This document shows, piece after piece, positions 1-40,294 of a DNA stretch of 40,294 bases; within the stretch, counting starts at the first letter, position 1; the number at the start of each line of letters is the position of its first letter. Source of the stretch: Escherichia phage vB_EcoP-U8. The DNA is taken from sequence record MT862763.1; one strand, written 5' to 3'. A program made the translations under genes and the position numbers. Under the pieces are notes generated by a model. The model was not told the DNA's origin and ran no database searches. It saw only the letters and a program-made list of their open reading frames with translations.

Positions 1-982
1 AGCCTTCGTATGGGTTATCGAAGCAAGGTTCGTTACCACCAATACCGTACGGCGCAAAGATGCCAACCGCAGCAAGCGTGTCATCCTTGACCTTAGCCGT
101 AAACTCGTCCTTCTGCTCCTCGGTCAGACCACAAGCATTAACCACCATGCCATCCTCAAGCAGCACCTCAAAGCCAATCACCTTACCTTCGTTAGCCTTG
201 CCCGGAGTCCCCCACACGAGGCCACATACAGTTCCGTCGATGGTCTCCTCTGGCTTCATTTTCCACATTCCCGACTTCTTGCCACGCTTATATTTACCCA
301 GTGGGTCCTTGACTACCAGACCCTCGTGTCCTTCCAGACGCTTCTGTTCGTACAGGGAGTTGAGCGACTCAAGGTCATAGACCGTGTGTGACTCAGACAG
401 AGCCCAGTCGATTTCCGGGAAGTATTTCTGGAGGAGAGGGACGATAGATTCGGCCTTCAGGCGTGTGACGCTATGGATAGGACCTTCGGCTTTCGGGTCA
501 GCAATGGTTGTCATGTCGATGACACCGTAGACCACAACCTGAAGTCGTGACCGGGATCCCCAGAACGGGAGCTTCTTTCCACCAGTCGCCGGCGAATAGT
601 ATTCAGCGAACTCCTCGTTGTTAGGCTTGAGCCACTTCGTTCGGATGAGACCTGAGGAGGTGTTGAAGTCTACACCTTTGACCATGACCTCGCCATCAAT
701 CATCATGCCCACACCTTCGTAGCCGGATTGACGCAGGAACCATCGCCAGTCAGCTTGGGTCCACGCATTACCTAACTCAGAGTTCATCCACTCCAAGGCT
801 GGTAGAGGTTTCGACTCGCGGCTAAGCCAGTAGGTCTCACCTTCACGCAGGACCAGGAGGTTCAGGCGCACACCATCGTACTTCACTTCAGCTTCCAGAG
901 ACCCGGCTGCTTCCAGTGCCTTCTTAATTCCAGACTCAGAGTAATCTACAGCGCGGTGCGGGTTAGTTTTGATAGTTGTCAT
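1..982 (-). CDS. ATP-dependent DNA ligase (T7 gene 1.3-like), 5' part; runs off window start, C-terminal codons at 40207..40294
   Basis: Own RC translation from ATG at 980-982: MTTIKTNPHRAVDYSESGIKKALEAAGSLEAEVKYDGVRLN... with KYDG adenylation motif and collinear match to T7 ligase as recalled. Absent from the six-frame track because it has no in-window stop. Confidence 0.85.
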   Translation of the reverse strand, partial: MTTIKTNPHRAVDYSESGIKKALEAAGSLEAEVKYDGVRLNLLVLREGETYWLSRESKPLPALEWMNSELGNAWTQADWRWFLRQSGYEGVGMMIDGEVMVKGVDFNTSSGLIRTKWLKPNNEEFAEYYSPATGGKKLPFWGSRSRLQVVVYGVIDMTTIADPKAEGPIHSVTRLKAESIVPLLQKYFPEIDWALSESHTVYDLESLNSLYEQKRLEGHEGLVVKDPLGKYKRGKKSGMWKMKPEETIDGTVCGLVWGTPGKANEGKVIGFEVLLEDGMVVNACGLTEEQKDEFTAKVKDDTLAAVGIFAPYGIGGNEPCFDNPYEG

Positions 983-2113: not shown

Positions 2114-4795
2114 TTAAGCGAATGCAAAGTCTGAAGACAAGATGTCTTCGATATTCAGTTTACCTTTCTTCGGAAGCTCAGGCAACTTGTCTCTCTGGCT
2201 CTCGTGAAGCTGGTATTCAAACTGCTCGTAGAAGTCAAGCAGCACATCGTTGTCGCGGTAGGTCTCGACCATCGTCTCACGGACTCCACGGAACAGATAC
2301 TCAGCGTCAGCCGGGATGGTCCCGAAGCTATCGTGAATCACTGCGAATGACATCACGCCATATTTGCGGTGCGTGTGTACTACAGTCTTGCGGAGGTGGC
2401 TACCATCTTGTGAGTGGACGAAGTTCGGGCTAATGCCTGACTCCTGCTTGTGCTTGTCCAGCTCTTTCTTCGTGCCTTTGTTGACGGTAGGCTGAAGGTT
2501 GAATGACCCTAAGAACATCAGGTTCAGACGAGTGGTGTCCTTCTTGCGGTATTCCTGCCAGACAGGGAAACCATCAGGTGTGACCCAGTGTACCGGAAGA
2601 CAAGGCTTCAGGATTTCTCCAGTCTTCTTGTCCTTCACTTCAGCAGCAAGCAGCTTGGCAGCACCCTGAAGCCATTTCATCGCGTCAACCGCAGCAACTA
2701 CGGTCACACTCACAGCTTCCCAAATCATCTTAGCCATGAAGCGAGATGCTTGGCTTGGTTCAGTGAACATAGCGCCAGACCCTGAGTCAATCGCTGGCAT
2801 CACGATGTCCTCGTAAACTTGGTCTGCGAAGCCGTACTCTTTCGACCCGTAGGCCAGAGTCATGACCGAACGCTTAGTGACCTTTCGTGACATACCGTAG
2901 GTCAGCCACTGACGGGCAAGCTCTCGTGTCCCCAGCTTGAGACGCTCGGTAATCTCACCAGTTTTCTTGTCCTCGTGAGTTACCATCTCGTTGTCCGTAC
3001 CGTTAACCAGTAGGACTTTAAGCTCCTCCTCAATGCGGTCAGACACGATGCGGTAGATGTCTTGGACCTTACCGGATGGCGTCAGGTTTACTGCATGTCC
3101 ACCGATGTGGTCGCGAAGCATAGCGCTGAAGTGCTGAATCCCAGAGCAGGACCCATCGAACGCTATCGGCAGCGAGCAGGAGTAAGACAAGCCGTGGTGC
3201 ATTACGCCAGCATACTCGAAGCAGAACGCTAGGAAGCAGAACGGAGAGTCTAACTTGCCCCACCACTCAATGCTATCCATCGGTGCCTTGGCAGCAGCCA
3301 TGATGTTGTCGTGGTTATCTTCCACCCACTTGATACGCTCCTCGAAGGTGACTTTATCGACACCCGCGCAGTTTGCACCGTGGACCTTCAGCCATTTGAA
3401 ACCATCAGCACCAATAGGCTTACCGACTGCCAGAGTCAGAAGACCCTTTTGCATGTCGTTACCCTGAGGGTTGAACATCGGCACAGCGTAGACGCGACCG
3501 CGCCAGTCCATGTTATACGGGAACCAGATGGCCTTGAACTGAGAGAACTTGTTCGCTTGGTTGACGATAAAGCTCAGTGACAATCTTCGTGACTGTCTGG
3601 CCTTCTCGCGGCGATAGATACCAGCAGCAGCCTTCTTCCATGCCTTGAGTTCTTCTTCAGTCTCACCCGCATAGTCCTCAGGCTTCAGCGGTTCCATCTG
3701 AGGGATGTCATCAATAGGCGTGTTGTTCAGCTTCTCGACCATGTTCACCACTTCCAGAACCTTCTTGTTCACTTTCCAAGGTGTATTCTGAATGATGTTC
3801 ACAGCGTCATAGACTTCAGGCATATACACGTCTTCGTAGCGTGCTACCGCAGACTTAGACCCTAAGCGAATCAGTGGTAATGGTCTGCGTCCTTTGGCCC
3901 AGTACCCACCGCCTACGACACCAGTCCACGGCTTAGGTGGAACGACGCAAGGCTGGTAGACTGGAGCTATACCCGCAAGGCTGAATCCTCGTTGTGCCAT
4001 CTTCTTGACCCAGAAGTCTGACAGGTGGACCATCTCAACGTCAGCCGCTGCATTGCCAGCACCGTAACGCTTAAGCTCGACCAGTTGTGTGGACTGGATG
4101 ACAATCTCCAGCATCTTGATTCCAACGTGGACAGCCTCGGTCGGACTCCAAGTCCCCCACGCATCTTCCAGTTGGCCTTGCTCCAGCATGGATGCCTCGA
4201 CCGCTTGCATGTAGGCTTTCTTGTAGGACGCCCCGGCCCGCTTATTCAGGTTATCAGCTATCGCCTTCTTGAAGTGCTCTTTCTCCTTGTCACGGATGCG
4301 ACCGAAGCGGATTTCGTCCTCAAGTGTGCGACCTATCGCTGAGGCCATCGGTGTAATCGGTATCCCTTCAGGCTTGACCAGCTTGGAGAGTATGACCTTC
4401 AGTATGATAACCGCAGCAGACTCGCAGGAGATGCGCAAAGAGCGGACCTTTACGGCCTTCTCTTCAGTGCTCAACATGGTGAACGCTACGCTCGGACGAG
4501 AGGTTGACAGCTTCCCGTCTGGACCTTCATGCCACTCCTTGACGGCTTGCGCAATCTTAGGGACCAGAGTCTGCATCAAAGGCTTGGCGACCTGATTGTC
4601 TGCCAGTTCCCCTCGCTCAGTCTGTCTCTCAAGGTTCTTGATGAAACGTCGCTCGCCTTCAGTGTATGCCTCGTGCTCAAGCTGAAGCTGTTTGACTGCA
4701 AGGTCTTGCCCGTAGTGGTCAGCCAGTAGGTTAAACGGCTCAATGGCGTTCGACACATCAGAGAAGTCGTGCTTGTCAATAGAGATGACGCTCAT
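2114..4795 (-). CDS. Single-subunit DNA-directed RNA polymerase (T7 gene 1-like)
   Basis: 893 aa; collinear with T7 RNAP as recalled (MSVISIDKHDFSD..., ...ILSSDFAFA C-terminus, NMDWRGRVYAV, HDSFGT motifs). Confidence 0.97.
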   Translation of the reverse strand: MSVISIDKHDFSDVSNAIEPFNLLADHYGQDLAVKQLQLEHEAYTEGERRFIKNLERQTERGELADNQVAKPLMQTLVPKIAQAVKEWHEGPDGKLSTSRPSVAFTMLSTEEKAVKVRSLRISCESAAVIILKVILSKLVKPEGIPITPMASAIGRTLEDEIRFGRIRDKEKEHFKKAIADNLNKRAGASYKKAYMQAVEASMLEQGQLEDAWGTWSPTEAVHVGIKMLEIVIQSTQLVELKRYGAGNAAADVEMVHLSDFWVKKMAQRGFSLAGIAPVYQPCVVPPKPWTGVVGGGYWAKGRRPLPLIRLGSKSAVARYEDVYMPEVYDAVNIIQNTPWKVNKKVLEVVNMVEKLNNTPIDDIPQMEPLKPEDYAGETEEELKAWKKAAAGIYRREKARQSRRLSLSFIVNQANKFSQFKAIWFPYNMDWRGRVYAVPMFNPQGNDMQKGLLTLAVGKPIGADGFKWLKVHGANCAGVDKVTFEERIKWVEDNHDNIMAAAKAPMDSIEWWGKLDSPFCFLAFCFEYAGVMHHGLSYSCSLPIAFDGSCSGIQHFSAMLRDHIGGHAVNLTPSGKVQDIYRIVSDRIEEELKVLLVNGTDNEMVTHEDKKTGEITERLKLGTRELARQWLTYGMSRKVTKRSVMTLAYGSKEYGFADQVYEDIVMPAIDSGSGAMFTEPSQASRFMAKMIWEAVSVTVVAAVDAMKWLQGAAKLLAAEVKDKKTGEILKPCLPVHWVTPDGFPVWQEYRKKDTTRLNLMFLGSFNLQPTVNKGTKKELDKHKQESGISPNFVHSQDGSHLRKTVVHTHRKYGVMSFAVIHDSFGTIPADAEYLFRGVRETMVETYRDNDVLLDFYEQFEYQLHESQRDKLPELPKKGKLNIEDILSSDFAFA

Positions 4796-4864: not shown

Positions 4865-4887
4865 GAGTCCTATAGTGATAGTTAAGT
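4865..4887 (-). promoter_or_regulatory. Phage RNA polymerase promoter directly upstream of the RNAP gene
   Basis: Plus strand CCTATAGTGATAGTTAAG at 4869..4886; +1 about 75 nt upstream of the RNAP start codon. Confidence 0.65.
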
Positions 4888-6310: not shown

Positions 6311-6380
6311 CTTGTTTATCCTTTAGTTAGTGACTATCAGTCAGGCCGCTATCAGTCTAACGACCTGTAGTTAATCACTC

Positions 6381-6635: not shown

Positions 6636-6804
6636 CCTTTAAGTTAGTGACTATCAGTCAGGGCCTTCAGATGTAGACTCAAAGGCCCTGTAGTTAGTCG
6701 CTATCGGCGCACATTAAGAGTTTATCCAGATTGTTAAAGAGCATTCCCTTCAGTCAGAGGACTTCAGGTAGACCGTTTCAGTGTCGGTCGTCACCGTTGT
6801 TTCG

Positions 6805-6843: not shown

Positions 6844-7104
6844 CTACTTTCTGTCATCTGCCTGTTGTTCGTATGACTTATCAGGCTGTCTACTTAACCG
6901 GGATGACCAGGCGTCTTCACTATCCGGTTGTTGCCGTGTCGTGTTGACGGAAGCTATTAGGCCATAGTCTGGACCTATAGTCAATAGGTAATTTTAAATA
7001 ATATTGATTAAGCTATCGTCGGCCCCATGGTGTAAGAGGATGTAGTCTTTGACTAACATGTCTTAGACCTTAAGTCTATATCCTTGTGTCTATTAACGTA
7101 GGTC

Positions 7105-7185
7105 TCTGACTGTAGGTAGCGGCATTACCGATGGTCGATGACTGTAGGTAGTTAGACTGTAAGTAGTTAGACTGTAGGTAGTGAC
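7105..7185. repeat. Short tandem/direct repeats (GACTGTAGGTAG x4, last three at 15-bp period) in genome-end region
   Basis: Copies at 7108, 7140, 7155 (one mismatch), 7170; lies between gene 19 and the early promoters, where T7 carries terminal-repeat and CCTAAAG-type repeats. Confidence 0.6.
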
Positions 7186-7618
7186 TCAAGGTCTGATACA
7201 GATAGAGACTCAAAGAAGACCAATAGTCCCTACCTATCGTCTTTCCCTAAGCCATAGCCACAACCTATCGTTGACCTGAAGTCTTGACCATCGGTCTAAC
7301 CTTATGATAGACTGGGGTAGGGCCTTTGGTCTGGACTAAAAGAGGGCCTATGGGGAGACTTGAGGTTCTTGAACTGTGAGATGTGGTCTCAAACTTTTGG
7401 TCCAAAACTCATCGTCACTACTGTAGACCACAGCCACTGTAGGTCAATGACCGTAGGTCAGGCGACACTAGGATAGACCAATAAGTAGGATGACCCTAAG
7501 TGAGCTTCTCTTAAGGTGTTACCTAAAGTCCTTGACTACAGTAGCTAAGGTCAGTAGAGTAGCGTCAGCTATGAACTGACCTTAGGTCTTGCTTTCGTTG
7601 ATTGTTACCATTACGGCG

Positions 7619-10302: not shown

Positions 10303-10674
10303 TCAGAATCGACGTACAAGCGTCTTCTCTAGGTATGAAACAGCCCGCTGGACACTAGATGTAGTATCTCCCAGTGCGCCAATTGCTGCATTGCACTTGC
10401 GGCATAAAACCCCTCTAATCACCCCAGTGGAATGACAGTGGTCAATACACGCAGAGTCTGTATCTCCTTTCTTCCCACCTACTTTAAGCGGAGTCTTGCA
10501 AATCTCGCATGAGCTTCCCACCGAGTGCATCAGGTCCTCGAACTGTTCAAGCGTGAGACCATATAGGCTCTTTATCTGCGAAATGCGCTTAGTCCTCTTT
10601 CTTCGTTCCTCCCGTTCCTCTCGTAATTTACGAGCAGCTTGAACGTTAGCCTTTATAACATCTTCCGATACCAT
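10303..10674 (-). CDS. Endonuclease VII-family protein (putative homing endonuclease) between gene 18 and 18.5
   Basis: CEICK...IDHCHSTGVIRGVLCRKCN, the Cys/His pattern of T4 endo VII-type proteins; SD AGGAGGTGGT before ATG. Confidence 0.75.
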   Translation of the reverse strand: MVSEDVIKANVQAARKLREEREERRKRTKRISQIKSLYGLTLEQFEDLMHSVGSSCEICKTPLKVGGKKGDTDSACIDHCHSTGVIRGVLCRKCNAAIGALGDTTSSVQRAVSYLEKTLVRRF

Positions 10675-11252: not shown

Positions 11253-14108
11253 TTAGCCCCTACCTCCACAACCTTCAAGTTTATCCAGTCGTGTTTCAAT
11301 CCTGTCGCAGCGACGTCGCTGATAAGCGGCCTCCAACCAGAAACACTGATCTGGACGAATGCCCCAGCGATTACCGGCAGCTCTAGTAAGTAGGGTATTA
11401 CCGGTTTCCACTTGACGGGTAACTTCGGTATCGACACCATCAATATTAACAGTGATAACCTCATCAACGAACTCAGGTTCATACTCATCTTCCCACTCGT
11501 CATAGCAAAGCAGACCGAAGGTAGTACCATCCAAACCATGCTTTATGAAGGTATCACGAACTTGCTGGGCAATTACCCCGAAATGCCAACGAGCAGAATC
11601 TTCACCTTTAGCCGCAATAGAAGATAACCACTTGTACGTGATTATCTGCACGTCGCCCCAGGCATCAAGGATATCATCCGAGATTTCAAACGGGTAAGTT
11701 TTTTCACGGGAGTCGGACGTATTAATAGTACCAATCGCTGCGAAGACTTGAGCCACACGTAATGCTGGGTTGCCTAAATTGTAAGCGTTATCTGTGTATG
11801 GACGTAGAGATGTATTATCTATACGCCATCGAATAGTGCCACCTACGGTTTCGGGCGACGGATTAGTAGCAAAACTAATAGACGTAGCACTCTTAAATAC
11901 CGACGATCCACCACCTAAGATAAGAGAATGTGCAGATGCGGAACTTTGTTGATCGAGGACAAGAATCTGTTCTGATTCGGTTAAAGTTTTATTACCGAAA
12001 GCCCTAGCTGCAATTCGACCTTGGGTTAATGCACCAGAGTCAGTATTATTCAGGGTTAAGCGATAAGTCTCTAAACCGATAGCCCCAGTAATTACGGTAT
12101 AACCGGAAGTGTCATAAGTTACACGCACAGTCTTACGGGTAGTTGGCCCAGTCTGATCTATAGAGAAGCTCTGATTATTCAGGTTGCTGATATGAAGCTC
12201 TATCCCAATTGGGTAGGCAACTCCATCCAGATCTGTAAGACCGGTGCTTGACGTATAGATAGTAACTGCCTTCTGCCCAGACAGCCGCATAAAGTCCAAT
12301 ACTGCTGACATTGAAGTCATGGCACTACCGGTCAGAGGGTTATAGAGTACGTCGCCTGCGAGGATTCGTGGATAAACCCCAGAAGCCATCCGAATGGTAT
12401 CGTAACCTGGAGATACCGTTGTCACCGCAGAAAAATCCAAGTCTGGGGAGTTGGAATACTCTTTGGTAATTAGGATCCCATGCGTATACGCATTCGAGGC
12501 GGTTCGGTTGTTATAGATCCATAAGGTGAACACCTCACCATTTGAATAGCAGATGCCCTCATTCTCTATACGAGAAGTCGTTAAGCCTTTAGCGTCCAGA
12601 ACACTAATAAAACCAGTAGGGGGCATTACTGCCTCCACCATTTTGTGCCCGTCAGTGCTGAATGCTTTTACTCCCTGATAATTAGTAGGTGCTTCCACAG
12701 TTGTTCCTGTAATGTAAACACCACCGAATGCCATAATCAGAACACCCGGAGCTAAACAGATTGCTTGTCGCTTAGTTTGAAGCGGCCCGTAATCAGTAGT
12801 AGTTGTCGTGATGTATCCAGCATCATACGGAGAAAATTCCGTGAAACCAGTTAATGCAAATGCGGAGTTGAAGTACGCAATAACATTACGTTGACGGTTA
12901 ATGCCCAACGCTGGGATGGCCTGTTCAACTGCCCACATTCCATTATGGAAGGAGAACTGGTTATACAGACCCACTTGGTGTAACGCTGTATAGCTAATCG
13001 TGGTGCCATAGGTCACTGCTGAGATATCAAACTCAGCTAAGTTACCATCGTAGGATCCAAGGAATAACTTAAGTGAACCATAGTAATTGGTTACGATAAT
13101 CCCCTCGGATACCGCAGAACCATTTACCCCTGTGCCTCCATTATTAGTCTGGAGATACCCTAAGTATTCACCTTCACCTGAGTAAACTACAACGAAACGT
13201 TCCGTAGCTGCGTTGTTACTTGGGCCATATGCAATGTAGATATTGCCATCATCCCCGATACAGAATGACCCCGGATAAATAAACGTCCAGTCAGGGTGCG
13301 CCGCCAGAATAGCATCGTAATCTGGGAATAGTAATGGCAGGTCAAAACTAATTTCTTTTTTATCTGCGCCAGAATTAGCCCAACGGCTGCTCAGGACTGT
13401 AGACAGTGTTTCCCCGTTTTTTGTGCCGATTAAATTTGTTCCGGTTGGTTTTGCAATATCGGCGCGCAATGACGCATCACCAACACTAACCCACGCACCC
13501 AAACCAACGCCGCCAGACGTTTCAGGAGTTGAACCAACAGGCACTGTTTTTGGCAGTCCACCATCCCAGCGGTAATACTCACCATCAGCTTCCCATAGCA
13601 GGACCTCGTTCCATGTTGTAATGTTGATGCCTTTCTCGAAGGAGCGACGGGTAATATAGCCGATTCGACCAGATGCCTGGATATTATCAGCGATTCGTCG
13701 TGCTTCGTCCTCGCTATCCTTAGCGTTGCCAGCAGAGCTACCAGCAGCATCTGCATATTCCTTCACTAAGTCAACCGTTTGGTCTCGACCTTCTTCTGCA
13801 ATATGGATAGCCTGAAGCTCTGAATTTGTCAGGTCACTAGCTGTCAACACTGAGCCATTCCTGAAATCTACCACTAAGTCAGTTCCAGTCTGACGGTGAA
13901 TACGAACTATGTCGAAACCTGATTGGTCAACCAACATCTCAATCATCGTTGGATTAAGGAATCGGTAATCTCGACCAACTTCCAGTACACGGTTCAGGGT
14001 AGGGTTAGAGCTATTCACCAGCGTAACAACAACAAACGTTCTGGATAGGTAGTCGAACTCAATCCTGTACTGAGTGTTTCCTGAAGGGAATTGTGTAATC
14101 GTGGACAT
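11253..14108 (-). CDS. Tail fiber/tailspike (gp17-like N-terminal adapter, divergent distal domain, C-terminal chaperone-like domain)
   Basis: 951 aa vs 553 in T7; first ~150 aa match T7 gp17 N-terminus (FVVVTL, LVVDFRNGSVL); C-terminus contains NTSDSREK...WHFGVIAQQV resembling intramolecular chaperone (peptidase S74-like) domains. Confidence 0.9.
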   Translation of the reverse strand: MSTITQFPSGNTQYRIEFDYLSRTFVVVTLVNSSNPTLNRVLEVGRDYRFLNPTMIEMLVDQSGFDIVRIHRQTGTDLVVDFRNGSVLTASDLTNSELQAIHIAEEGRDQTVDLVKEYADAAGSSAGNAKDSEDEARRIADNIQASGRIGYITRRSFEKGINITTWNEVLLWEADGEYYRWDGGLPKTVPVGSTPETSGGVGLGAWVSVGDASLRADIAKPTGTNLIGTKNGETLSTVLSSRWANSGADKKEISFDLPLLFPDYDAILAAHPDWTFIYPGSFCIGDDGNIYIAYGPSNNAATERFVVVYSGEGEYLGYLQTNNGGTGVNGSAVSEGIIVTNYYGSLKLFLGSYDGNLAEFDISAVTYGTTISYTALHQVGLYNQFSFHNGMWAVEQAIPALGINRQRNVIAYFNSAFALTGFTEFSPYDAGYITTTTTDYGPLQTKRQAICLAPGVLIMAFGGVYITGTTVEAPTNYQGVKAFSTDGHKMVEAVMPPTGFISVLDAKGLTTSRIENEGICYSNGEVFTLWIYNNRTASNAYTHGILITKEYSNSPDLDFSAVTTVSPGYDTIRMASGVYPRILAGDVLYNPLTGSAMTSMSAVLDFMRLSGQKAVTIYTSSTGLTDLDGVAYPIGIELHISNLNNQSFSIDQTGPTTRKTVRVTYDTSGYTVITGAIGLETYRLTLNNTDSGALTQGRIAARAFGNKTLTESEQILVLDQQSSASAHSLILGGGSSVFKSATSISFATNPSPETVGGTIRWRIDNTSLRPYTDNAYNLGNPALRVAQVFAAIGTINTSDSREKTYPFEISDDILDAWGDVQIITYKWLSSIAAKGEDSARWHFGVIAQQVRDTFIKHGLDGTTFGLLCYDEWEDEYEPEFVDEVITVNIDGVDTEVTRQVETGNTLLTRAAGNRWGIRPDQCFWLEAAYQRRRCDRIETRLDKLEGCGGRG

Positions 14109-22296: not shown

Positions 22297-24654
22297 TTAG
22301 ACGGAACGAGCTTTCTTAGCGTATGACGCCTCCCAGCCACAGCCAACGATGGACACTGGGGTAGGATAATCTGACTCTAAGGTTAGACTCGTGGTTAATG
22401 CGTTACCATTCATAGCGAAGCGATACTGACCGTCACCAATGTTGGTAGTCCCAATGGTCTGCTGACCAAGGGTGTACCCATTAAAGGTGTTCACGAACTC
22501 CCGCTCACCGTTTCTGACAATGAGTCTAAGAGCGCCAGTGTCCTTGTAGTTGACCCAAGCCCGACGAAGTTGTAGGCGTCCAGTGTCTTCAGACTGAGTG
22601 CCGCTATCGTCTTCAATCTTAATCAGGAACCGTGAGAACTTGTAGGACATCAGATAAGACCGTCCTATGAACACTGTACGTCCTGACCAATCGCCATTTA
22701 GTATAGCCACAGTTGAGATGTCTGTCAATTCACCAAGGTCCACGTAGGCACCCTGACTGTCAATAAGATAGTACCGACCGGGAGACGGAGCGTTTCCACC
22801 ATAAGCAGAACCAATGTCAACCGTAGTCTTATAGGTGTCAACGTTGTATGAGCCAATTGGTATTACCATAGACACCTTGGAGTCAACGTGGAGTCTATAT
22901 GGCTCTAACGGAAAGTCGGTTGCCTCCTTGATAAACTTAAGGTGCTCAAGGTCCACACCGCCTTGGTGCTGACGAACAATGAACATGGTAGAGCCAATCG
23001 AAGCAGACGCCAGAATCTTATCAGCTTTAGGGAACTCCCAGTGCGACCAAGAGGCTTGAAGCTGTACGCCGTCCTTAAACAAGAACTTATAGATGTAGAT
23101 TCGGTTGTATGCACCTGTAGAGTTGACGCAGATGTAGTTCTCAGTCCCTGTACCTTGAATGTCAAACACCCCGTTAGGGATATAGGACAGTACGTGACCA
23201 GTGGTATCATCGGCATCCTTCACGTCAGACACATCTGCTACAGCGAAGTATCGCTTAATGCTGGTGAATGACCCACGAGGCGCTGAGAAGAAGACTGAGC
23301 GTCCTACAGCGAACGGTCTGGCGTTATCACCTAAGGCAAACTCTGAGCCTACATCAAGCTGGATAGACTTCGAGGTAAGGACCCCAGAGCTTGTCATCAC
23401 GAACTGCACCTCATCCGACCAAAGTAGTAGCTGCTCGCTAAACGGAACGGCATACTTAAGGATTGAGATTCTAGGATGACTTACAGCTACGTCAATAGGA
23501 TCATCATCACTCAGTGTAGCCACACTCTTAGGGAAGAACGCAAAGTAGCTGGCTGAACGGCTCATGATTACGTTCTCGCCTGACAAGAACCCCAGCCTAT
23601 TCCTGTAGAAGAACACATCGTTAATCGTAGCATCCACGAAGCTAGGCATAGGGTTTGTGTCATCATTACCAGCACCACGATTAGACCAGTCCAGAGTCTT
23701 GAACTCAAAGGAGCCGTCAGATTGTCTCACCAGAGCATGAGGCATTGTGGTGTTATCGAACCCAGTGACCACTCCCGGCTCTACTGTCTCCTTCCACGTC
23801 TTAGTGTTGGAGTCATACATCACGTAATATTCATCGGCGCTACTGTTGGTCTCACCTTGAATCTTAATGATGTACCCATTTGGAGCTGCAAGAGGCAACT
23901 TAGAGATTGTTTGCACCGTGTCGAGTACTGGGCTGATTAGCTGGTTAGCATAGCCATCCTCCGTCTCCACTGAGTTAATGTCAGTCCCTGAAGGGGCAGT
24001 GATTAACAGGAATCCAGACCCAAGGTCGAACGTGAAGGTAGGGTAAGCAGCAACAAGAAGGTCTCTCAGAGCTGCACCGATGGCTTGAGCGTCCACCTTA
24101 GGTGGGTCATTCTCGGCATCATTACCTGCTGGTAGCTTATGCGAGACCTTAACGCCACCGTTGATTCCCACCTTAAGGGTTCGACCATACTGTCCGCCAC
24201 GCAGGTTAATTAAAGCTCGTGCTTTGCGGTTATAACCAGAGTGTGACTTCTCGCTTCCACCTTTAACGACAACCTTACGGTTCACGATGAACGTATAGTC
24301 TGCAACAGTAACGACACGGATGTCATCTCGCGGGTTGGACGACTTAACGTAATCTACCGCACCGGAAACTGAGTATTGATTACCACTCAAGTCAACTACC
24401 TGAATGTTTGACCCGTTGAACACGATGTAATACTGCTCATGCTCGTCACGGTTAATCAGGTGGAACTTAGGGTTGCTCCCAACGTCGATGTTAAGACGTC
24501 TCTTGAAGACTGTAGGTGGACGCTTCTGTAGGCCATCACTCTCTGATGACCAGCAGTTTACCTGTTCCTCGCCTTGGTCCGAGAACCTCAGGATGTCTGG
24601 CTGCTGGCTAATGCCACCTTTAAGGTTCTTGATTGATTGAGTAATTAGTGGCAT
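22297..24654 (-). CDS. Tail tubular protein B (gp12-like)
   Basis: 785 aa; MPLITQSIKNLKGGISQQPDILRF and GRLQLRRAWVNY match T7 gp12 as recalled. Confidence 0.95.
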   Translation of the reverse strand: MPLITQSIKNLKGGISQQPDILRFSDQGEEQVNCWSSESDGLQKRPPTVFKRRLNIDVGSNPKFHLINRDEHEQYYIVFNGSNIQVVDLSGNQYSVSGAVDYVKSSNPRDDIRVVTVADYTFIVNRKVVVKGGSEKSHSGYNRKARALINLRGGQYGRTLKVGINGGVKVSHKLPAGNDAENDPPKVDAQAIGAALRDLLVAAYPTFTFDLGSGFLLITAPSGTDINSVETEDGYANQLISPVLDTVQTISKLPLAAPNGYIIKIQGETNSSADEYYVMYDSNTKTWKETVEPGVVTGFDNTTMPHALVRQSDGSFEFKTLDWSNRGAGNDDTNPMPSFVDATINDVFFYRNRLGFLSGENVIMSRSASYFAFFPKSVATLSDDDPIDVAVSHPRISILKYAVPFSEQLLLWSDEVQFVMTSSGVLTSKSIQLDVGSEFALGDNARPFAVGRSVFFSAPRGSFTSIKRYFAVADVSDVKDADDTTGHVLSYIPNGVFDIQGTGTENYICVNSTGAYNRIYIYKFLFKDGVQLQASWSHWEFPKADKILASASIGSTMFIVRQHQGGVDLEHLKFIKEATDFPLEPYRLHVDSKVSMVIPIGSYNVDTYKTTVDIGSAYGGNAPSPGRYYLIDSQGAYVDLGELTDISTVAILNGDWSGRTVFIGRSYLMSYKFSRFLIKIEDDSGTQSEDTGRLQLRRAWVNYKDTGALRLIVRNGEREFVNTFNGYTLGQQTIGTTNIGDGQYRFAMNGNALTTSLTLESDYPTPVSIVGCGWEASYAKKARSV

Positions 24655-30933: not shown

Positions 30934-31026
30934 TCAGTGTTTAGGACGGTTGTTCGACCCGAACCACTTGTACATGCAGTAAAGGGCCAGAAGTCCGACC
31001 CAGTAAATTACATGGATGGTGTCCAT
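30934..31026 (-). CDS. small hydrophobic protein (gp6.3 position)
   Basis: 30 aa MDTIHVIYWVGLLALYCMYKWFGSNNRPKH; SD AGGAGG 7 nt upstream; overlaps gene 6 3' end. Confidence 0.4.
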   Translation of the reverse strand: MDTIHVIYWVGLLALYCMYKWFGSNNRPKH

Positions 31027-31880
31027 AGGATGACCTCCTTGGACTTAGGGTCGTAGTCGTAGGCTCGGCAAATACGAGCGACCTGAGCTTGGACCAGAAG
31101 TTCCTCCTCGGTCATCCCAGCTTTAGCAGCCAGAGTCACCATGCAGTCCCACAGCGTCATGTCGTCACGCTTTGGATACTTCTTCCACTCAGTCTTAATC
31201 TGGCCTTTGTTCTTACCAGTCTTAAGCTCACGGCTCTCCTGTACGAAGTAGTACGGCTCGTCAAGGAACGCGCGTGTGGTATCCTCACCCATCCCCGGAA
31301 TGCCACCGTAGCCATCTGTGGTGTCACCCTTGATGGTTTGCTCCATGTGCCAGTAGTCTGCCTCAGCAGTCGTATGACTCAGGATTTCACCAGTGGTTAA
31401 CCAGAAGAACTCACAGTTCGGGATGGTCTTGAAGTCCTTATCACAGGACACCAGAACAGCATGGTCACAGCCTACAATCTGAGGTCTGGTCCCGATGATA
31501 CCCATACAATCATCGCCTTCAAGCGTAGGACGCAGGAAGCTGTTGAACCGTGTGTCAGCCATCACTTCGGCTACGAACTTCTTGTAACCTACAGGCTTGC
31601 GAGAACCTTTACGGTTGGCCTTATAGGTAGGCAGGACGTCCTTACGCCAGTTGTAATCGTCAGTGAAGCACATCACAATCTTAGCGTCTTTCCACGCCTT
31701 GCGCTTCTTAACGATTTCAGCGATGGTGTTCTCAAGGATACGACGAGCCTTTGCATGGTCGCAGATAAGGGTATAAATATCATCGCCCCAATCTGTCTCG
31801 TCCTCAGCAGCAGCCATAGATGAAAACACTAAGTAGTCACCATCTAACACAAGAGCTATTTTCTTTTCGCTCACAGGCAT
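31008..31880 (-). CDS. 5'-3' exonuclease (gp6-like); start uncertain (ORF-track start 31928, alternatives 31880 or GTG 31874)
   Basis: Matches T7 gp6 as recalled (CDKDFKTIPNCEFFW, KGDTTDGY, TLWDCMVTLAAKAGMTEE). Confidence 0.9.
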   Translation of the reverse strand: MPVSEKKIALVLDGDYLVFSSMAAAEDETDWGDDIYTLICDHAKARRILENTIAEIVKKRKAWKDAKIVMCFTDDYNWRKDVLPTYKANRKGSRKPVGYKKFVAEVMADTRFNSFLRPTLEGDDCMGIIGTRPQIVGCDHAVLVSCDKDFKTIPNCEFFWLTTGEILSHTTAEADYWHMEQTIKGDTTDGYGGIPGMGEDTTRAFLDEPYYFVQESRELKTGKNKGQIKTEWKKYPKRDDMTLWDCMVTLAAKAGMTEEELLVQAQVARICRAYDYDPKSKEVILWTPSM

Positions 31881-32080
31881 CCTCCATGTTGGTTCAGGAA
31901 CTTGGTGCCAGCAGCGGTAATCTCCCACGCACCGTTGTTACGCCCGTCCATAGACAGACAGCTCAGATGTCCACGACTCGCAGCCTCAGCCACCAGTGCC
32001 GCATTGTTGCGCACGTAGTTGGACTGGAAGGTCTTCGGGCAGGACTTAAGGGCCGCTAGGACCCGTAAGTATTCACTCAT
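31871..32080 (-). CDS. gp5.7-like protein
   Basis: 69 aa; MSEYLRVLAALKSCPKTFQSNYVRNNAALVAEAASRGH nearly identical to T7 gp5.7 as recalled. Confidence 0.85.
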   Translation of the reverse strand: MSEYLRVLAALKSCPKTFQSNYVRNNAALVAEAASRGHLSCLSMDGRNNGAWEITAAGTKFLNQHGGCL

Positions 32081-32786: not shown

Positions 32787-34845
32787 CTTCTGCTATCTCC
32801 TGAGTACGGCACGCTATCTGCAATTCATCGTGAATCCAAGCCATTAGCGCAAAGTCGCCGTCCCATCCGTTACCGTAACCAGCCTCTTCAAGTTTCTTCT
32901 CAGTCAGTACCATCCAGTGCTTACAGACAACCGCACCGTCCCCCTGAAGTAGGGCGTTAAGTGCTGAGTGTGGAGACCGGATGTGAATACGACGACCATC
33001 CAGACCTTTCAGCCAGCGACGTTTCCACTTGACGATATTCTCACCGTCCACCCACTTAGAGTCTGAGATTAACGTATTACTCACAGCTTCCCTGAGGTCC
33101 TTGATGGCTGGTGTACCCTCAATGAATTTCTTCATCAGAGCTGAACCTTCCTTCTTACCACCGCCTACTATCAGTCCAATCTTAGCGGCCCCTGCACCAT
33201 ACAGGAACGCGTAGATGAACGTCTTAGCGTTGTTACGGAAAGCCTCATGGTCGTGGTTAGACTTATCGCGTTGGACGTTAGGTGCTAACCCAGCGTTTAC
33301 TGCGTTGGCCCAGTGGATGTCACCTTCTACCACAGTCTTCGCATATGCACCACCATCAAACGGAGCCGCTCTGTTCCCAAGACAACGAAGCTCAAGACCT
33401 GAGGCATCCACACCAACTTGAATCCAAGGGTCTGGCTTACCGTCCTTCTTGTTCCACGCTGCACCGAAAGCACCACGGCAAGTCTCACCATATGGAGCAC
33501 CGTTAGCCGGGACCTGAGCCATGTTTGGTGAACTATGGGTCGCACGTCCGGTTACTGCCCCGCATGGGTTTATTGAGCCGTGCATACGTCCGTCTGGACC
33601 TACAAGTTTCAACCATGCGTTCTTACCTTCAGCAGCCTGACCGATGCGCTTCTGGACGACCAGATATTCACGGACCAGCTCTACGCAAGCCTGAGCCTCT
33701 GCGTCTGGTAACTTAACGTGTTCTAACGTCTCGTCATCGACTACAGGTTTCCCGGTGTCAGTGAAGTCTACAGGCTCCCAGCCACGCTCCATCAGGACTT
33801 TCGCTAAGTGGTCTCCGCTTCCCGGATTAAACTCAACGTAAGTGATTGGCGTGAAAGGCGCTCCTTCCATCGTGTCTCGCGTATCACGCTCACAAGGTTC
33901 AAGACCTAAGCGTTGAGCTTTGTTCTTCGGCTTCTTAAAGATGCCACCGACCTTAGGATACACGACTCGCGGATACTTCGGAAGGTCCTTGCCAGTCCGT
34001 GGGTGCTTGAAGAACTCCTTGCCTCCCTTTGGTGCGTACCAGCTACCGAAAGTCGAACGCAGCTTGTCCAGCAGCTCTGCACGTTTGACGGTTAGTTCAC
34101 GATATAAGCCTTCGACCATCTCGGTGTTCATCGGATAGCCGTTACGTTCCATCTTCGCACAGGTCCACGCAGCATCATGTTCCAGACGCAACGCATAAAT
34201 CTGGTCGAAAGCGAACTGTTCAGACTGGAAGTAATACTTGTCAGTCAGGAACTTCTTGAACAACGCCAGTGTGACCACAACGTCCTGAACGTTATAGTCC
34301 AGCATCTCCTGAGACGGGAACAACCATTCGTCCCCAGCCTTATATTCGATACCTTCTGCCTTGCACTTGGCAACGTAATCGTGTTTGTACTCACCCTTCA
34401 TCTCACCGAGACGATAACCCCAAGCCTCAAGAGACTGGCGTCCCATCATCTTAGGAGGCAGACGACCAGCTTTCACCGCGCCCATGTCTGAGAACTTAAT
34501 GTTGGGATACATCAAGCGACCCAGCACCAAGGTATCAATCATCTTGTGTTTCGGGAAGTTAAAGCGTTTCCCGAAGTACAGACGCTTCAGCTTGTCAATA
34601 GCCGGGACGTCATAGTTGATACCGTTGTGGAATACCAGCATACCATCAGGTGATGCGGCAATCTCTTCCACCTTCTGCACATACTCTTTGAAGCCACCGA
34701 CGATACCGACCATCGGAGCTACCCCATACTTAAGGGTCTCATTCGACTCGGCGTTAATCAGGACCCCACAGTGAAACTGGGAGACTGTATCAAGGAGACC
34801 GTTGGTCTCGATGTCAGAACCCCAGATACTCTTAAGGTCAAACAT
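32674..34845 (-). CDS. DNA polymerase (T7 gp5-like, family A with 3'-5' exonuclease)
   Basis: Collinear with T7 gp5 as recalled; start set at MFDLKS (GGAGG SD) rather than ORF-track start 34881; ends ...KECH. Confidence 0.97.
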   Translation of the reverse strand: MFDLKSIWGSDIETNGLLDTVSQFHCGVLINAESNETLKYGVAPMVGIVGGFKEYVQKVEEIAASPDGMLVFHNGINYDVPAIDKLKRLYFGKRFNFPKHKMIDTLVLGRLMYPNIKFSDMGAVKAGRLPPKMMGRQSLEAWGYRLGEMKGEYKHDYVAKCKAEGIEYKAGDEWLFPSQEMLDYNVQDVVVTLALFKKFLTDKYYFQSEQFAFDQIYALRLEHDAAWTCAKMERNGYPMNTEMVEGLYRELTVKRAELLDKLRSTFGSWYAPKGGKEFFKHPRTGKDLPKYPRVVYPKVGGIFKKPKNKAQRLGLEPCERDTRDTMEGAPFTPITYVEFNPGSGDHLAKVLMERGWEPVDFTDTGKPVVDDETLEHVKLPDAEAQACVELVREYLVVQKRIGQAAEGKNAWLKLVGPDGRMHGSINPCGAVTGRATHSSPNMAQVPANGAPYGETCRGAFGAAWNKKDGKPDPWIQVGVDASGLELRCLGNRAAPFDGGAYAKTVVEGDIHWANAVNAGLAPNVQRDKSNHDHEAFRNNAKTFIYAFLYGAGAAKIGLIVGGGKKEGSALMKKFIEGTPAIKDLREAVSNTLISDSKWVDGENIVKWKRRWLKGLDGRRIHIRSPHSALNALLQGDGAVVCKHWMVLTEKKLEEAGYGNGWDGDFALMAWIHDELQIACRTQEIAEDVVRIAQEAMREVGRFYNFKCELDTEGKIGPTWKECH

Positions 34846-34864
34846 GGTTAATCCTCCGTTTAGT

Positions 34865-34905
34865 CTAATCATAAAGGCCACTCTATGTGAATGACCTTTA
34901 GTCTA
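34865..34905 (-). promoter_or_regulatory. Conserved leader stem-loop element, copy C (candidate RNase III site upstream of gene 5)
   Basis: CTAATCATAAAGGCCAC-N-ATGACCTTTAGTCTA immediately upstream of pol RBS. Confidence 0.4.
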
Positions 34906-34908
34906 GAC

Positions 34909-35072
34909 CTAGAAGTCTGTACGCAAGAAGTGGTACATAAACTTCCGGTTAGCTTTCTTCCATGCCTTAGAGTCGAACCTCTGGTCTCCCAGAATGTTGG
35001 ACAGGAAGGTTGCTTCATCGCTCCACCATTTGTACATGAACCGATGGTAGCGAGCTTTAAGTTTCTTGAACA

Positions 35073-35073
<1 letters not shown>
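34909..35073 (-). CDS. hypothetical small basic protein (gene 4.3/4.5 position)
   Basis: 54 aa MFKKLKARYHRFMYKWW...; ATG preceded by GAGGAGGAGGAGGAGG. Confidence 0.45.
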
Positions 35074-36831
<1,758 letters not shown>

Positions 36832-40210: not shown

Positions 40211-40294
40211 GACTTCACCGTGGGGTTGTCTTCGGTTCCACGCCAGCACTTGAAGCTGGGGTGACGAAGGGAGCCATCAGGGAACCGCTCCATT
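40207..40294 (-). CDS. DNA ligase C-terminal fragment (continuation of the gene at 1..982)
   Basis: RC translation MERFPDGSLRHPSFKCWRGTEDNPTVKS* matches T7 ligase C-terminus (MEETPDGSLRHPSFVMFRGTEDNP) as recalled. Confidence 0.8.
   Translation of the reverse strand, partial: MERFPDGSLRHPSFKCWRGTEDNPTVKS

Follow-up and report, generated by a model that had tools for sequence, protein, structure and literature searches.

The window, by which we mean the whole 40,294-bp stretch of DNA analysed here, comes from a Kayfunavirus (K1F-like, Studiervirinae), and its best megablast matches are 94–96% identical. All of its genes lie on the minus strand, such that the genome is read on the reverse strand, and the sequence is circularly permuted. 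A DNA ligase open reading frame (ORF) spans both ends of the window (1–982 and 40293–40294), from which it follows that the window is a circularised assembly, permuted so as to hold the genome-end junction internally, with one copy of the terminal repeat (TR) collapsed. The features of the junction and its surroundings are as follows, in the order in which the genes are read; genome positions refer to the left end at window position 7381.

9838→8075, minus strand: large terminase gene
7777→7619, minus strand: ORF of 52 amino acids at the gene 19.5 position, the last gene of the genome
7545–7585, no strand: perfect 11-bp inverted repeat, CTAAGGTCAGT / ACTGACCTTAG, with a 19-nt spacer, flanked by the gene 19.5-like ORF on one side and the SRR-type units on the other
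7412–7462, minus strand: SRR-type array of three diverged 14–15 bp units, TGACCTACGGTCAT / TGACCTACAGTGGC / TGTGGTCTACAGTAG
7395–7407, no strand: perfect 13-bp palindrome, TTTTGGTCCAAAA, 14–26 bp outside the left terminus
7373–7381, minus strand: left-terminus motif TCTCACAGT, the same as the first 9 bases of T7 DNA
7381→7204, minus strand: direct TR of 178 bp, predicted by homology, present as a single collapsed copy that starts TCTCACAGTT and ends GAGTCTCT
7203→7196, minus strand: pause/cut motif ATCTGTAT; the first base after the TR corresponds to the right-end cut position of the concatemer junction
7092–7194, minus strand: whole SRL-type array, comprising GACCTTGAGTC, four units, two higher-order units of ~32 bp and a trailing ACCTACG half-unit
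7193→7183, minus strand: GACCTTGAGTC, at the array start
7170–7181, 7140–7151 and 7108–7119, plus strand: repeat units matching GACTGTAGGTAG exactly, read in the gene sense (minus) as CTACCTACAGTC at genome positions 201–212, 231–242 and 263–274
7155–7166, plus strand: one-mismatch unit GACTGTAAGTAG, read in the gene sense (minus) as CTACTTACAGTC at genome positions 216–227
7019→6985, minus strand: stretch of 78% A+T, ~70 bp downstream of the array
6984→6948, minus strand: first host-type early promoter, TTGACT...CCTAAT (genome position ~398), placed by alignment with an annotated EcoDS1 promoter
6659–6669 and 6342–6352, minus strand: sites of a 25-nt element (genome positions 723 and 1040)
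6635→6381, minus strand: first early ORF, 84 amino acids, phrog_10124 (unknown function)
4795→2114, minus strand: RNA polymerase gene

Elsewhere in the genome, exact phage promoter cores on the sense strand number nine. An exact core, TATCACTATAGG, at 4869–4880 (minus strand) precedes the RNA polymerase gene, which starts at 4795, by 74 bp, and GACTCAAGGTC comes directly after it; in the T7 record, no phage promoter is listed ahead of gene 1. A 123-residue ORF (10303–10674, minus strand), located between the genes that resemble the small terminase and Rz, has an HNH-endonuclease-like motif, CIDHCH...CRKCN, recognised by eye; K1F, T7 and T3 have no counterpart, which suggests that the ORF is probably a mobile homing endonuclease. 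The gene 5.7-like ORF (31871–32080, minus strand) runs into the beginning of the gene 6 exonuclease-like ORF (31008–31880, minus strand), such that a RecBCD inhibitor of the T7 gene 5.9 type could not be accommodated at the T7 position, and gene 5.9 is also missing from the K1F annotation.

The original prediction described four copies of GACTGTAGGTAG, one of them mismatched and three at a 15-bp period, between the gene 19.5-position ORF and the early region that begins with the 84-residue ORF, and it was correct on both the repeats and their location. Exact matching recovers the copies, Tandem Repeats Finder reports a period-15 array at 7140–7182 (2.9 copies, 92% matches, score 79, consensus GACTGTAGGTAGTTA), and a further repeat search returned the same four-member family, in which three of the four units (between 7108 and 7181) keep the 15-bp period. 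The repeat search also revealed the higher-order unit of ~32 bp, its two copies (7092–7119 and 7124–7151) being 82% identical. When up to two mismatches are allowed, GACTGTAGGTAG has 14 matches in the window versus 4.6 ± 2.1 in shuffled sequences, and none of 100 shuffles reached 14; when one is allowed, four of the five copies in the window fall inside 74 bp, the sole other copy being at 24508. The clustering is therefore not due to chance.

The array as a whole spans genome positions 189–290 and lies 6–100 bp past the pause/cut point. An imperfect 26-nt inverted repeat (7169–7194 / 7217–7242), centred ~2 bp from the cut, pairs the first array unit and GACCTTGAGTC with the last part of the TR. 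The array DNA folds at −6.3 kcal/mol versus −8.7 ± 2.4 kcal/mol when shuffled (z = +1.03) and has no Rfam match at E ≤ 1, and we reject its interpretation as a single-strand hairpin or structured RNA. Neither a sigma-70 promoter nor a terminator was found in the array, in an insensitive scan that also missed an annotated A1-type promoter.

The position of the array relative to the genome ends can be derived from relatives with determined or annotated ends. The genome start TCTCACAGTTCAAG is common to Vec13, Peacock, EcoDS1, GA2A and K1F, and corresponds to window position 7381 on the minus strand. Vec13 has a left terminal repeat at 1–179 and Peacock a PhageTerm direct terminal repeat (DTR) at 1–179, and the EcoDS1 annotation places the TR at 1–178, a ‘concatemeric junction’ at 177–184 and host promoters at 469, 609 and 764. 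A 179-bp repeat in K1F and run-off sequencing of the SH3–SH5 ends have been reported (PMC4925675). Both TR copies of Vec13 are identical and end ...GAGTCTCT, followed directly by ATCTGTAT, and the Vec13 record terminates on the right at ...GAGTCTCT; the window has the same boundary, ...GAGTCTCT|ATCTGTAT, at 7211–7196. In T7 the boundary reads ...GTGTCCCT|ATCTGTT, and T3 is arranged likewise, such that ATCTGTAT corresponds to the class II pause signal of T7 and T3, ATCTGTT, which is documented as causing T7 RNA polymerase to pause (PMC9157156). By homology we infer a left end at 7381 (minus strand) and a TR running from 7381 to 7204, and the virion DNA is predicted to be 40,294 + 178 = 40,472 bp in length.

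The original prediction, which linked the repeats to packaging and to the terminal repeat, is supported, in that the termini of the relatives map to 7381 and the TR end to 7204, and the four units begin 22 bp farther on. Judged by these relatives, the repeats are an array flanking the TR and are neither the TR nor a terminus; we reject both of these assignments from the TR boundaries of the relatives, the duplicated segment of Vec13 stopping 22 bp before the first unit. Their description as implicated in concatemer processing is drawn from position. For practical purposes, the assembly can be re-oriented to the left end at 7381 (minus strand) with one 178-bp repeat added, whereas the record used as deposited would start in the middle of a gene and lack the second terminal repeat. 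The tandem array can also break or mis-size short-read assemblies, as in another Kayfunavirus.

Across the TR, the words ACCTACGGTC, ACCTACAGTG and GTCTACAGTAG (7412–7462) are oriented as in the main array and are weaker than in T7; the original prediction did not mention this second array. The inverted repeat at 7545–7585, on the far side of these words, overlaps a palindromic word, GACCTAAGGTC. Hairpin-type intermediates were reportedly proposed for T7 end formation by Chung, Nardone and Hinkle in 1990, and either the 13-bp palindrome or the 11-bp inverted repeat could matter for end-formation intermediates of this T7 type.

Comparison of 38 distinct T7-like sequences, with junctions located through conserved DNA anchor loci, large-terminase alignment loci and GenBank records, places the array in a broader setting. 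The boundary CYCT|ATCTGT(T/A) is kept in all 38 junctions, including those of T7 and T3, and reiterated short words come next. The words differ by lineage: CCTAAAG in T7- and T3-like phages, CCTAATG(TC) or CCTAATGTC in others, CTATCAG in another, and ACCTACAGTC and ACCATAGGTC in Kayfunavirus. Every T7-group lineage with a located junction has same-orientation words of the CCTA..G type that are not alignable between lineages, and the keeping of the position while the sequence turns over argues for a function. T7 has CCTAAAG words after the TR, including a 15-bp tandem unit, GACCAGACCTAAAGA, and T3 has TR|ATCTGTT and then arrays of the CTTAAAG/CCTAAAG type; on the T7 top strand, 16 of the 22 CCTAAAG copies are in the TR, SRL or SRR. 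The names SRL and SRR were reportedly given to the T7 short repeats by Dunn and Studier in 1983, and we take the CCTAAAG arrays inspected here to be these repeats. Among 17 Kayfunavirus relatives, the distance from the junction motif to an invariant downstream anchor varies from 104 to 283 bp, which accommodates from 1 to more than 6 units of 13–16 bp, and in close relatives the first strict word lies at anything from +8 to +50 relative to the cut. This variability, in copy number and in distance alike, argues against a precise architectural role.

We are confident that the repeats are the Kayfunavirus version of the T7-group SRL-type array. They lie just internal to the left TR and before the early promoters, as same-orientation words next to an ATCTGT boundary, with a counterpart on the SRR side and in non-coding DNA; position and orientation are held throughout the lineage, and the number of copies varies. 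The kind of element is already known, subfamily-wide, and the finding as submitted is an ordinary one.

The array unit also fits a pattern that extends over the entire genome. In the generalised form ACCWWNRGTC it has 44 matches in the window versus 3.0 ± 1.9 expected, and only 12 of these are in the junction region. When all trinucleotide pairs at spacings of 0–15 are ranked, GAC-N5-GTC comes first, with 77 sites versus a median of 15 at other spacings (z = 16), and it is followed by GAC-N4-AGT, ACC-N4-GTC and CCT-N3-GTC, the last two of which the array unit fits. Roughly 14 sites would be expected for the word, other spacings giving ~13–15. Seen in the N5 frame, the array units are TAC-N5-GTC in the window and AAC-N5-GTC (AACCTACAGTC) in many relatives. 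K1F has 80 GAC-N5-GTC sites versus 14.0 ± 4.0 in shuffled sequences. The relaxed forms are likewise in excess in the window (AAC-N5-GTC, 47; GAC-N5-GTT, 43; AAC-N5-GTT, 33), for a RAC-N5-GTY total of 200. On the sense strand neither asymmetric form outnumbers the other appreciably; this suggests a signal in double-stranded DNA and makes action of the word at the RNA level unlikely.

The GAC-N5-GTC excess itself is solid, and an origin as an artefact of codon usage is rejected by two kinds of shuffling. Within ORFs there are 54 sites versus 10.0 ± 3.2 after codon-order shuffles, and shuffles among synonymous codons, which keep every protein sequence and the codon usage of each gene, yield 15.3 ± 3.1 strict sites versus 55 observed and 58.5 ± 5.9 relaxed sites versus 157, with control spacings as expected. 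The word thus exceeds composition-, codon- and protein-preserving nulls, inside genes too, in the manner of HIP1, and its sites occur in all three reading frames. Intergenic DNA carries 5.1 strict sites per kb and genes carry 1.5, where chance would give ~0.3. Over the 660 bp that surround the TR, relaxed sites rise to 18 per kb, versus 4.7 per kb elsewhere (Poisson p = 1e-4).

There is no N5 peak in T7 (14 sites), T3 (11) or 50 kb of E. coli (6), and we therefore reject the excess as a host-like compositional trait. Among 80 T7-like loci, the 20 with a terminase at least 93% identical to that of the window show a 3.6–7.6-fold excess, one with a terminase at 81% identity shows a 4-fold excess, and nearly all of those at 76% identity or less are near 1-fold. 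The excess is confined to the Kayfunavirus clade, where it is 4–7-fold (the window, K1F (L024) and loci L026–L046). No alternative palindromic dyad was found in other T7-like lineages, and their array 7-mers are mostly confined to the ends. At ~85% DNA identity, 51–72% of word sites are retained versus 45–68% for control spacings, and at locus L039 specifically the retention is 23 of 40 word sites versus 29 of 51 control sites (Fisher p = 1.0). Purifying selection acting site by site is hence not seen; the density is held while single sites turn over.

The word is unevenly distributed among the long genes. The exchangeable tailspike gene (11253–14108, minus strand; genome positions 33568–36423) is devoid of strict sites and its relaxed density is only 1.4 per kb; most other long genes have a relaxed density of 4–6.4 per kb, and the RNA polymerase gene, at 2.2 per kb, is also poor in the word. 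A word-poor tailspike fits recent horizontal acquisition into a backbone that accumulates the word. A different spacing, GAC-N3-GTC, is nearly missing, with 1, 0, 1 and 1 sites in the window, K1F, T7 and T3 versus ~5–15 at most other spacings, and GTCGAC, GGTACC and GGTNACC are rare in the same four genomes; this scarcity looks like restriction-site avoidance, opposite in sign to the N5 excess. Directly before each of the first two early ORFs is the 25-nt element, CTGACTGATAGTCACTAAC(T)TAAAGG, which includes a GAC-N5-GTC word and may be a shared signal for translation initiation or processing.

It is possible, and we propose it tentatively, that a clade-specific word in double-stranded DNA is spread over the genome and clusters most tightly in the terminal array, and this would imply a symmetric reader. 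Kayfunaviruses would then use their choice among synonymous codons to hold the word at ~2 sites per kb in its strict form or 5 in its relaxed form, with the array units fitting ACC-N4-GTC / AAC-N5-GTC. The putative reader could be a phage or host protein, possibly part of the packaging machinery, acting genome-wide and most strongly around the TR, and the word could be kept either by weak selection for interchangeable binding sites or by a generative drive. No DNA-binding domain was recognised with Pfam and PHROGs in ten clade-specific small proteins considered as candidate readers. Resemblances to an AhdI site, matS, the MqsA palindrome, the lux box, type I and type III restriction sites and the phiKMV nick consensus were dropped for wrong spacing or asymmetry. 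We found no published description of a GAC-N5-GTC excess in the literature searched. An excess encoded at synonymous sites, missing in T7, in T3 and in the E. coli sample and all but lacking in the tailspike, is what a distributed protein-binding or self-marking signal would be expected to leave. A putative connection between the word and the function of the array is plausible; it lifts the interest of the locus above routine terminal-region annotation and, if true, would for the first time make the function of T7-type SRL/SRR arrays accessible to experiment.

Taking these observations together, we somewhat favor a role for the SRL-type array as an accessory element in recognition of the junction, as the best explanation overall. 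In the concatemer the order would be gene 19.5, SRR-type words, TR, ATCTGT pause/cut signal, array and early promoters, which would put a row of putative protein-binding words, all in the same orientation, beside the polymerase pause and the terminase right-end cut. Such a row may help the packaging or processing machinery to recognise the concatemer junction or to assemble on it, and would be accessory and tolerant of unit number rather than an essential signal. The specific mechanism, in which the words bind protein at the concatemer junction, is a conjecture that we regard as rather doubtful. A frame of the GAC-N5-GTC type is abundant genome-wide, so the array need not be specific to packaging. 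The literature searched yielded no experimental link of T7-type arrays to packaging and no demonstrated function for the arrays flanking the T7 TR, and nothing decisive on SRL/SRR function, pacB, GACNNNNNGTC or a K1F palindrome.

Several other explanations can be weighed against a role in junction recognition. The array could be a neutral by-product of slippage-prone non-coding DNA beside the TR, with no sequence-specific role. Copy number and unit variants do differ even where terminases are 97–99% identical, and the array is devoid of structure, RNA family or promoter, as a neutral sequence would be; yet each lineage with a located junction keeps same-orientation CCTA..G-type words there although the sequences cannot be aligned, a matching array lies across the TR, and slippage predicts neither persistence at a fixed place nor a kept orientation, so we consider neutrality unlikely. 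Least credible is that the repeats are part of a small protein-coding gene or of the TR itself. The mechanical ORF list does contain a 45-residue ORF with a TTG start (7213→7076), several relatives annotate ‘hypothetical proteins’ there, and the 15-bp period is a multiple of three. Nonetheless, stop codons interrupt essentially all six frames of the segment, both in the window and in 14 relatives, its length differs between them by amounts not divisible by three, and the TR boundary of the relatives is 22 bp away, which together effectively refute both forms of this explanation.

The remaining explanations assign the array to other stages of the infection cycle. T7 DNA enters the cell left end first, and a limited initial stretch is internalised before transcription takes over. 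An array at genome positions 189–290, upstream of the first host-type promoter (~398), would be suitably placed to act on the entering genome by binding a host or virion protein for control of entry, protection of the leading end or early transcription. We think this improbable, since the same words flank the right end (the SRR side), which is the last to enter, and the array has no promoter-like site. More improbable still is a part in replication, with a secondary origin close to the left end in which the units serve as iteron-like sites or for primase loading. The 78% A+T stretch lies ~70 bp downstream, the units end in GTC, and two tandem GAC-N5-GTC words (genome positions 5839 and 5852) follow the promoter located where T7 has its primary origin. 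GTC is the core of the T7 primase recognition sequence. Against this, T7-type origins are driven by a phage promoter, of which there is none from the array to the A+T stretch, GTC is missing from most of the T7 array words (CCTAAAG and then A, C or T), and no initiator protein was found. Accessory recognition of the junction remains the reading that we prefer.

Short reiterated words beside a packaging cut site are familiar from other phages, including the R sites of lambda cosB, the P1 pac hexamers and the SPP1 pacL/pacR boxes, which are bound by the small terminase or a host factor. The array resembles these in being a set of short reiterated words next to the cut, but binding has been demonstrated in those systems, whereas protein binding to the array is putative and its units are dispensable in number. 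The closer parallel is with T7 SRL and SRR, which similarly start a few bp after TR|ATCTGT, consist of same-orientation words at a spacing of 12–16 bp, include a 15-bp tandem sub-array, have a counterpart across the TR (160 bp in T7) and are non-coding. They differ in the word itself, CCTAAAG in T7 and ACCTACAGTC/ACCATAGGTC here, and in the number of units, ~12 in T7 versus 4–5 in the window; moreover, the T7 word is essentially confined to the ends, whereas the Kayfunavirus unit fits a gapped frame that is in excess genome-wide.

Within the same genus, vB_EcoA-Sparklingdew has a 15-bp tandem unit, AACCTACAGTCCTAC, next to its DTR, with contig ends in the repeat loci (PMC13298934, 2026). It shares the ACCTACAGTC core, the 15-bp period and the adjacency to the DTR with the array described here, and differs in the bases between the cores (CTAC/TAA) and in having been treated as an assembly feature with no function offered (PMC13298934). 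For the genome-wide word only, the nearest likeness is the HIP1 palindrome of cyanobacteria, GCGATCGC, a contiguous 8-mer described as 15–300-fold over-represented and of unknown function (PMC5861425). As outlined there, HIP1 is like the word reported here in being a short, lineage-specific palindrome that is far above chance and also present in genes; it is a contiguous 8-mer of cellular genomes at 15–300-fold excess, and the Kayfunavirus word is gapped (3+5+3), 4–7-fold in excess and carried by a 40-kb phage (PMC5861425).
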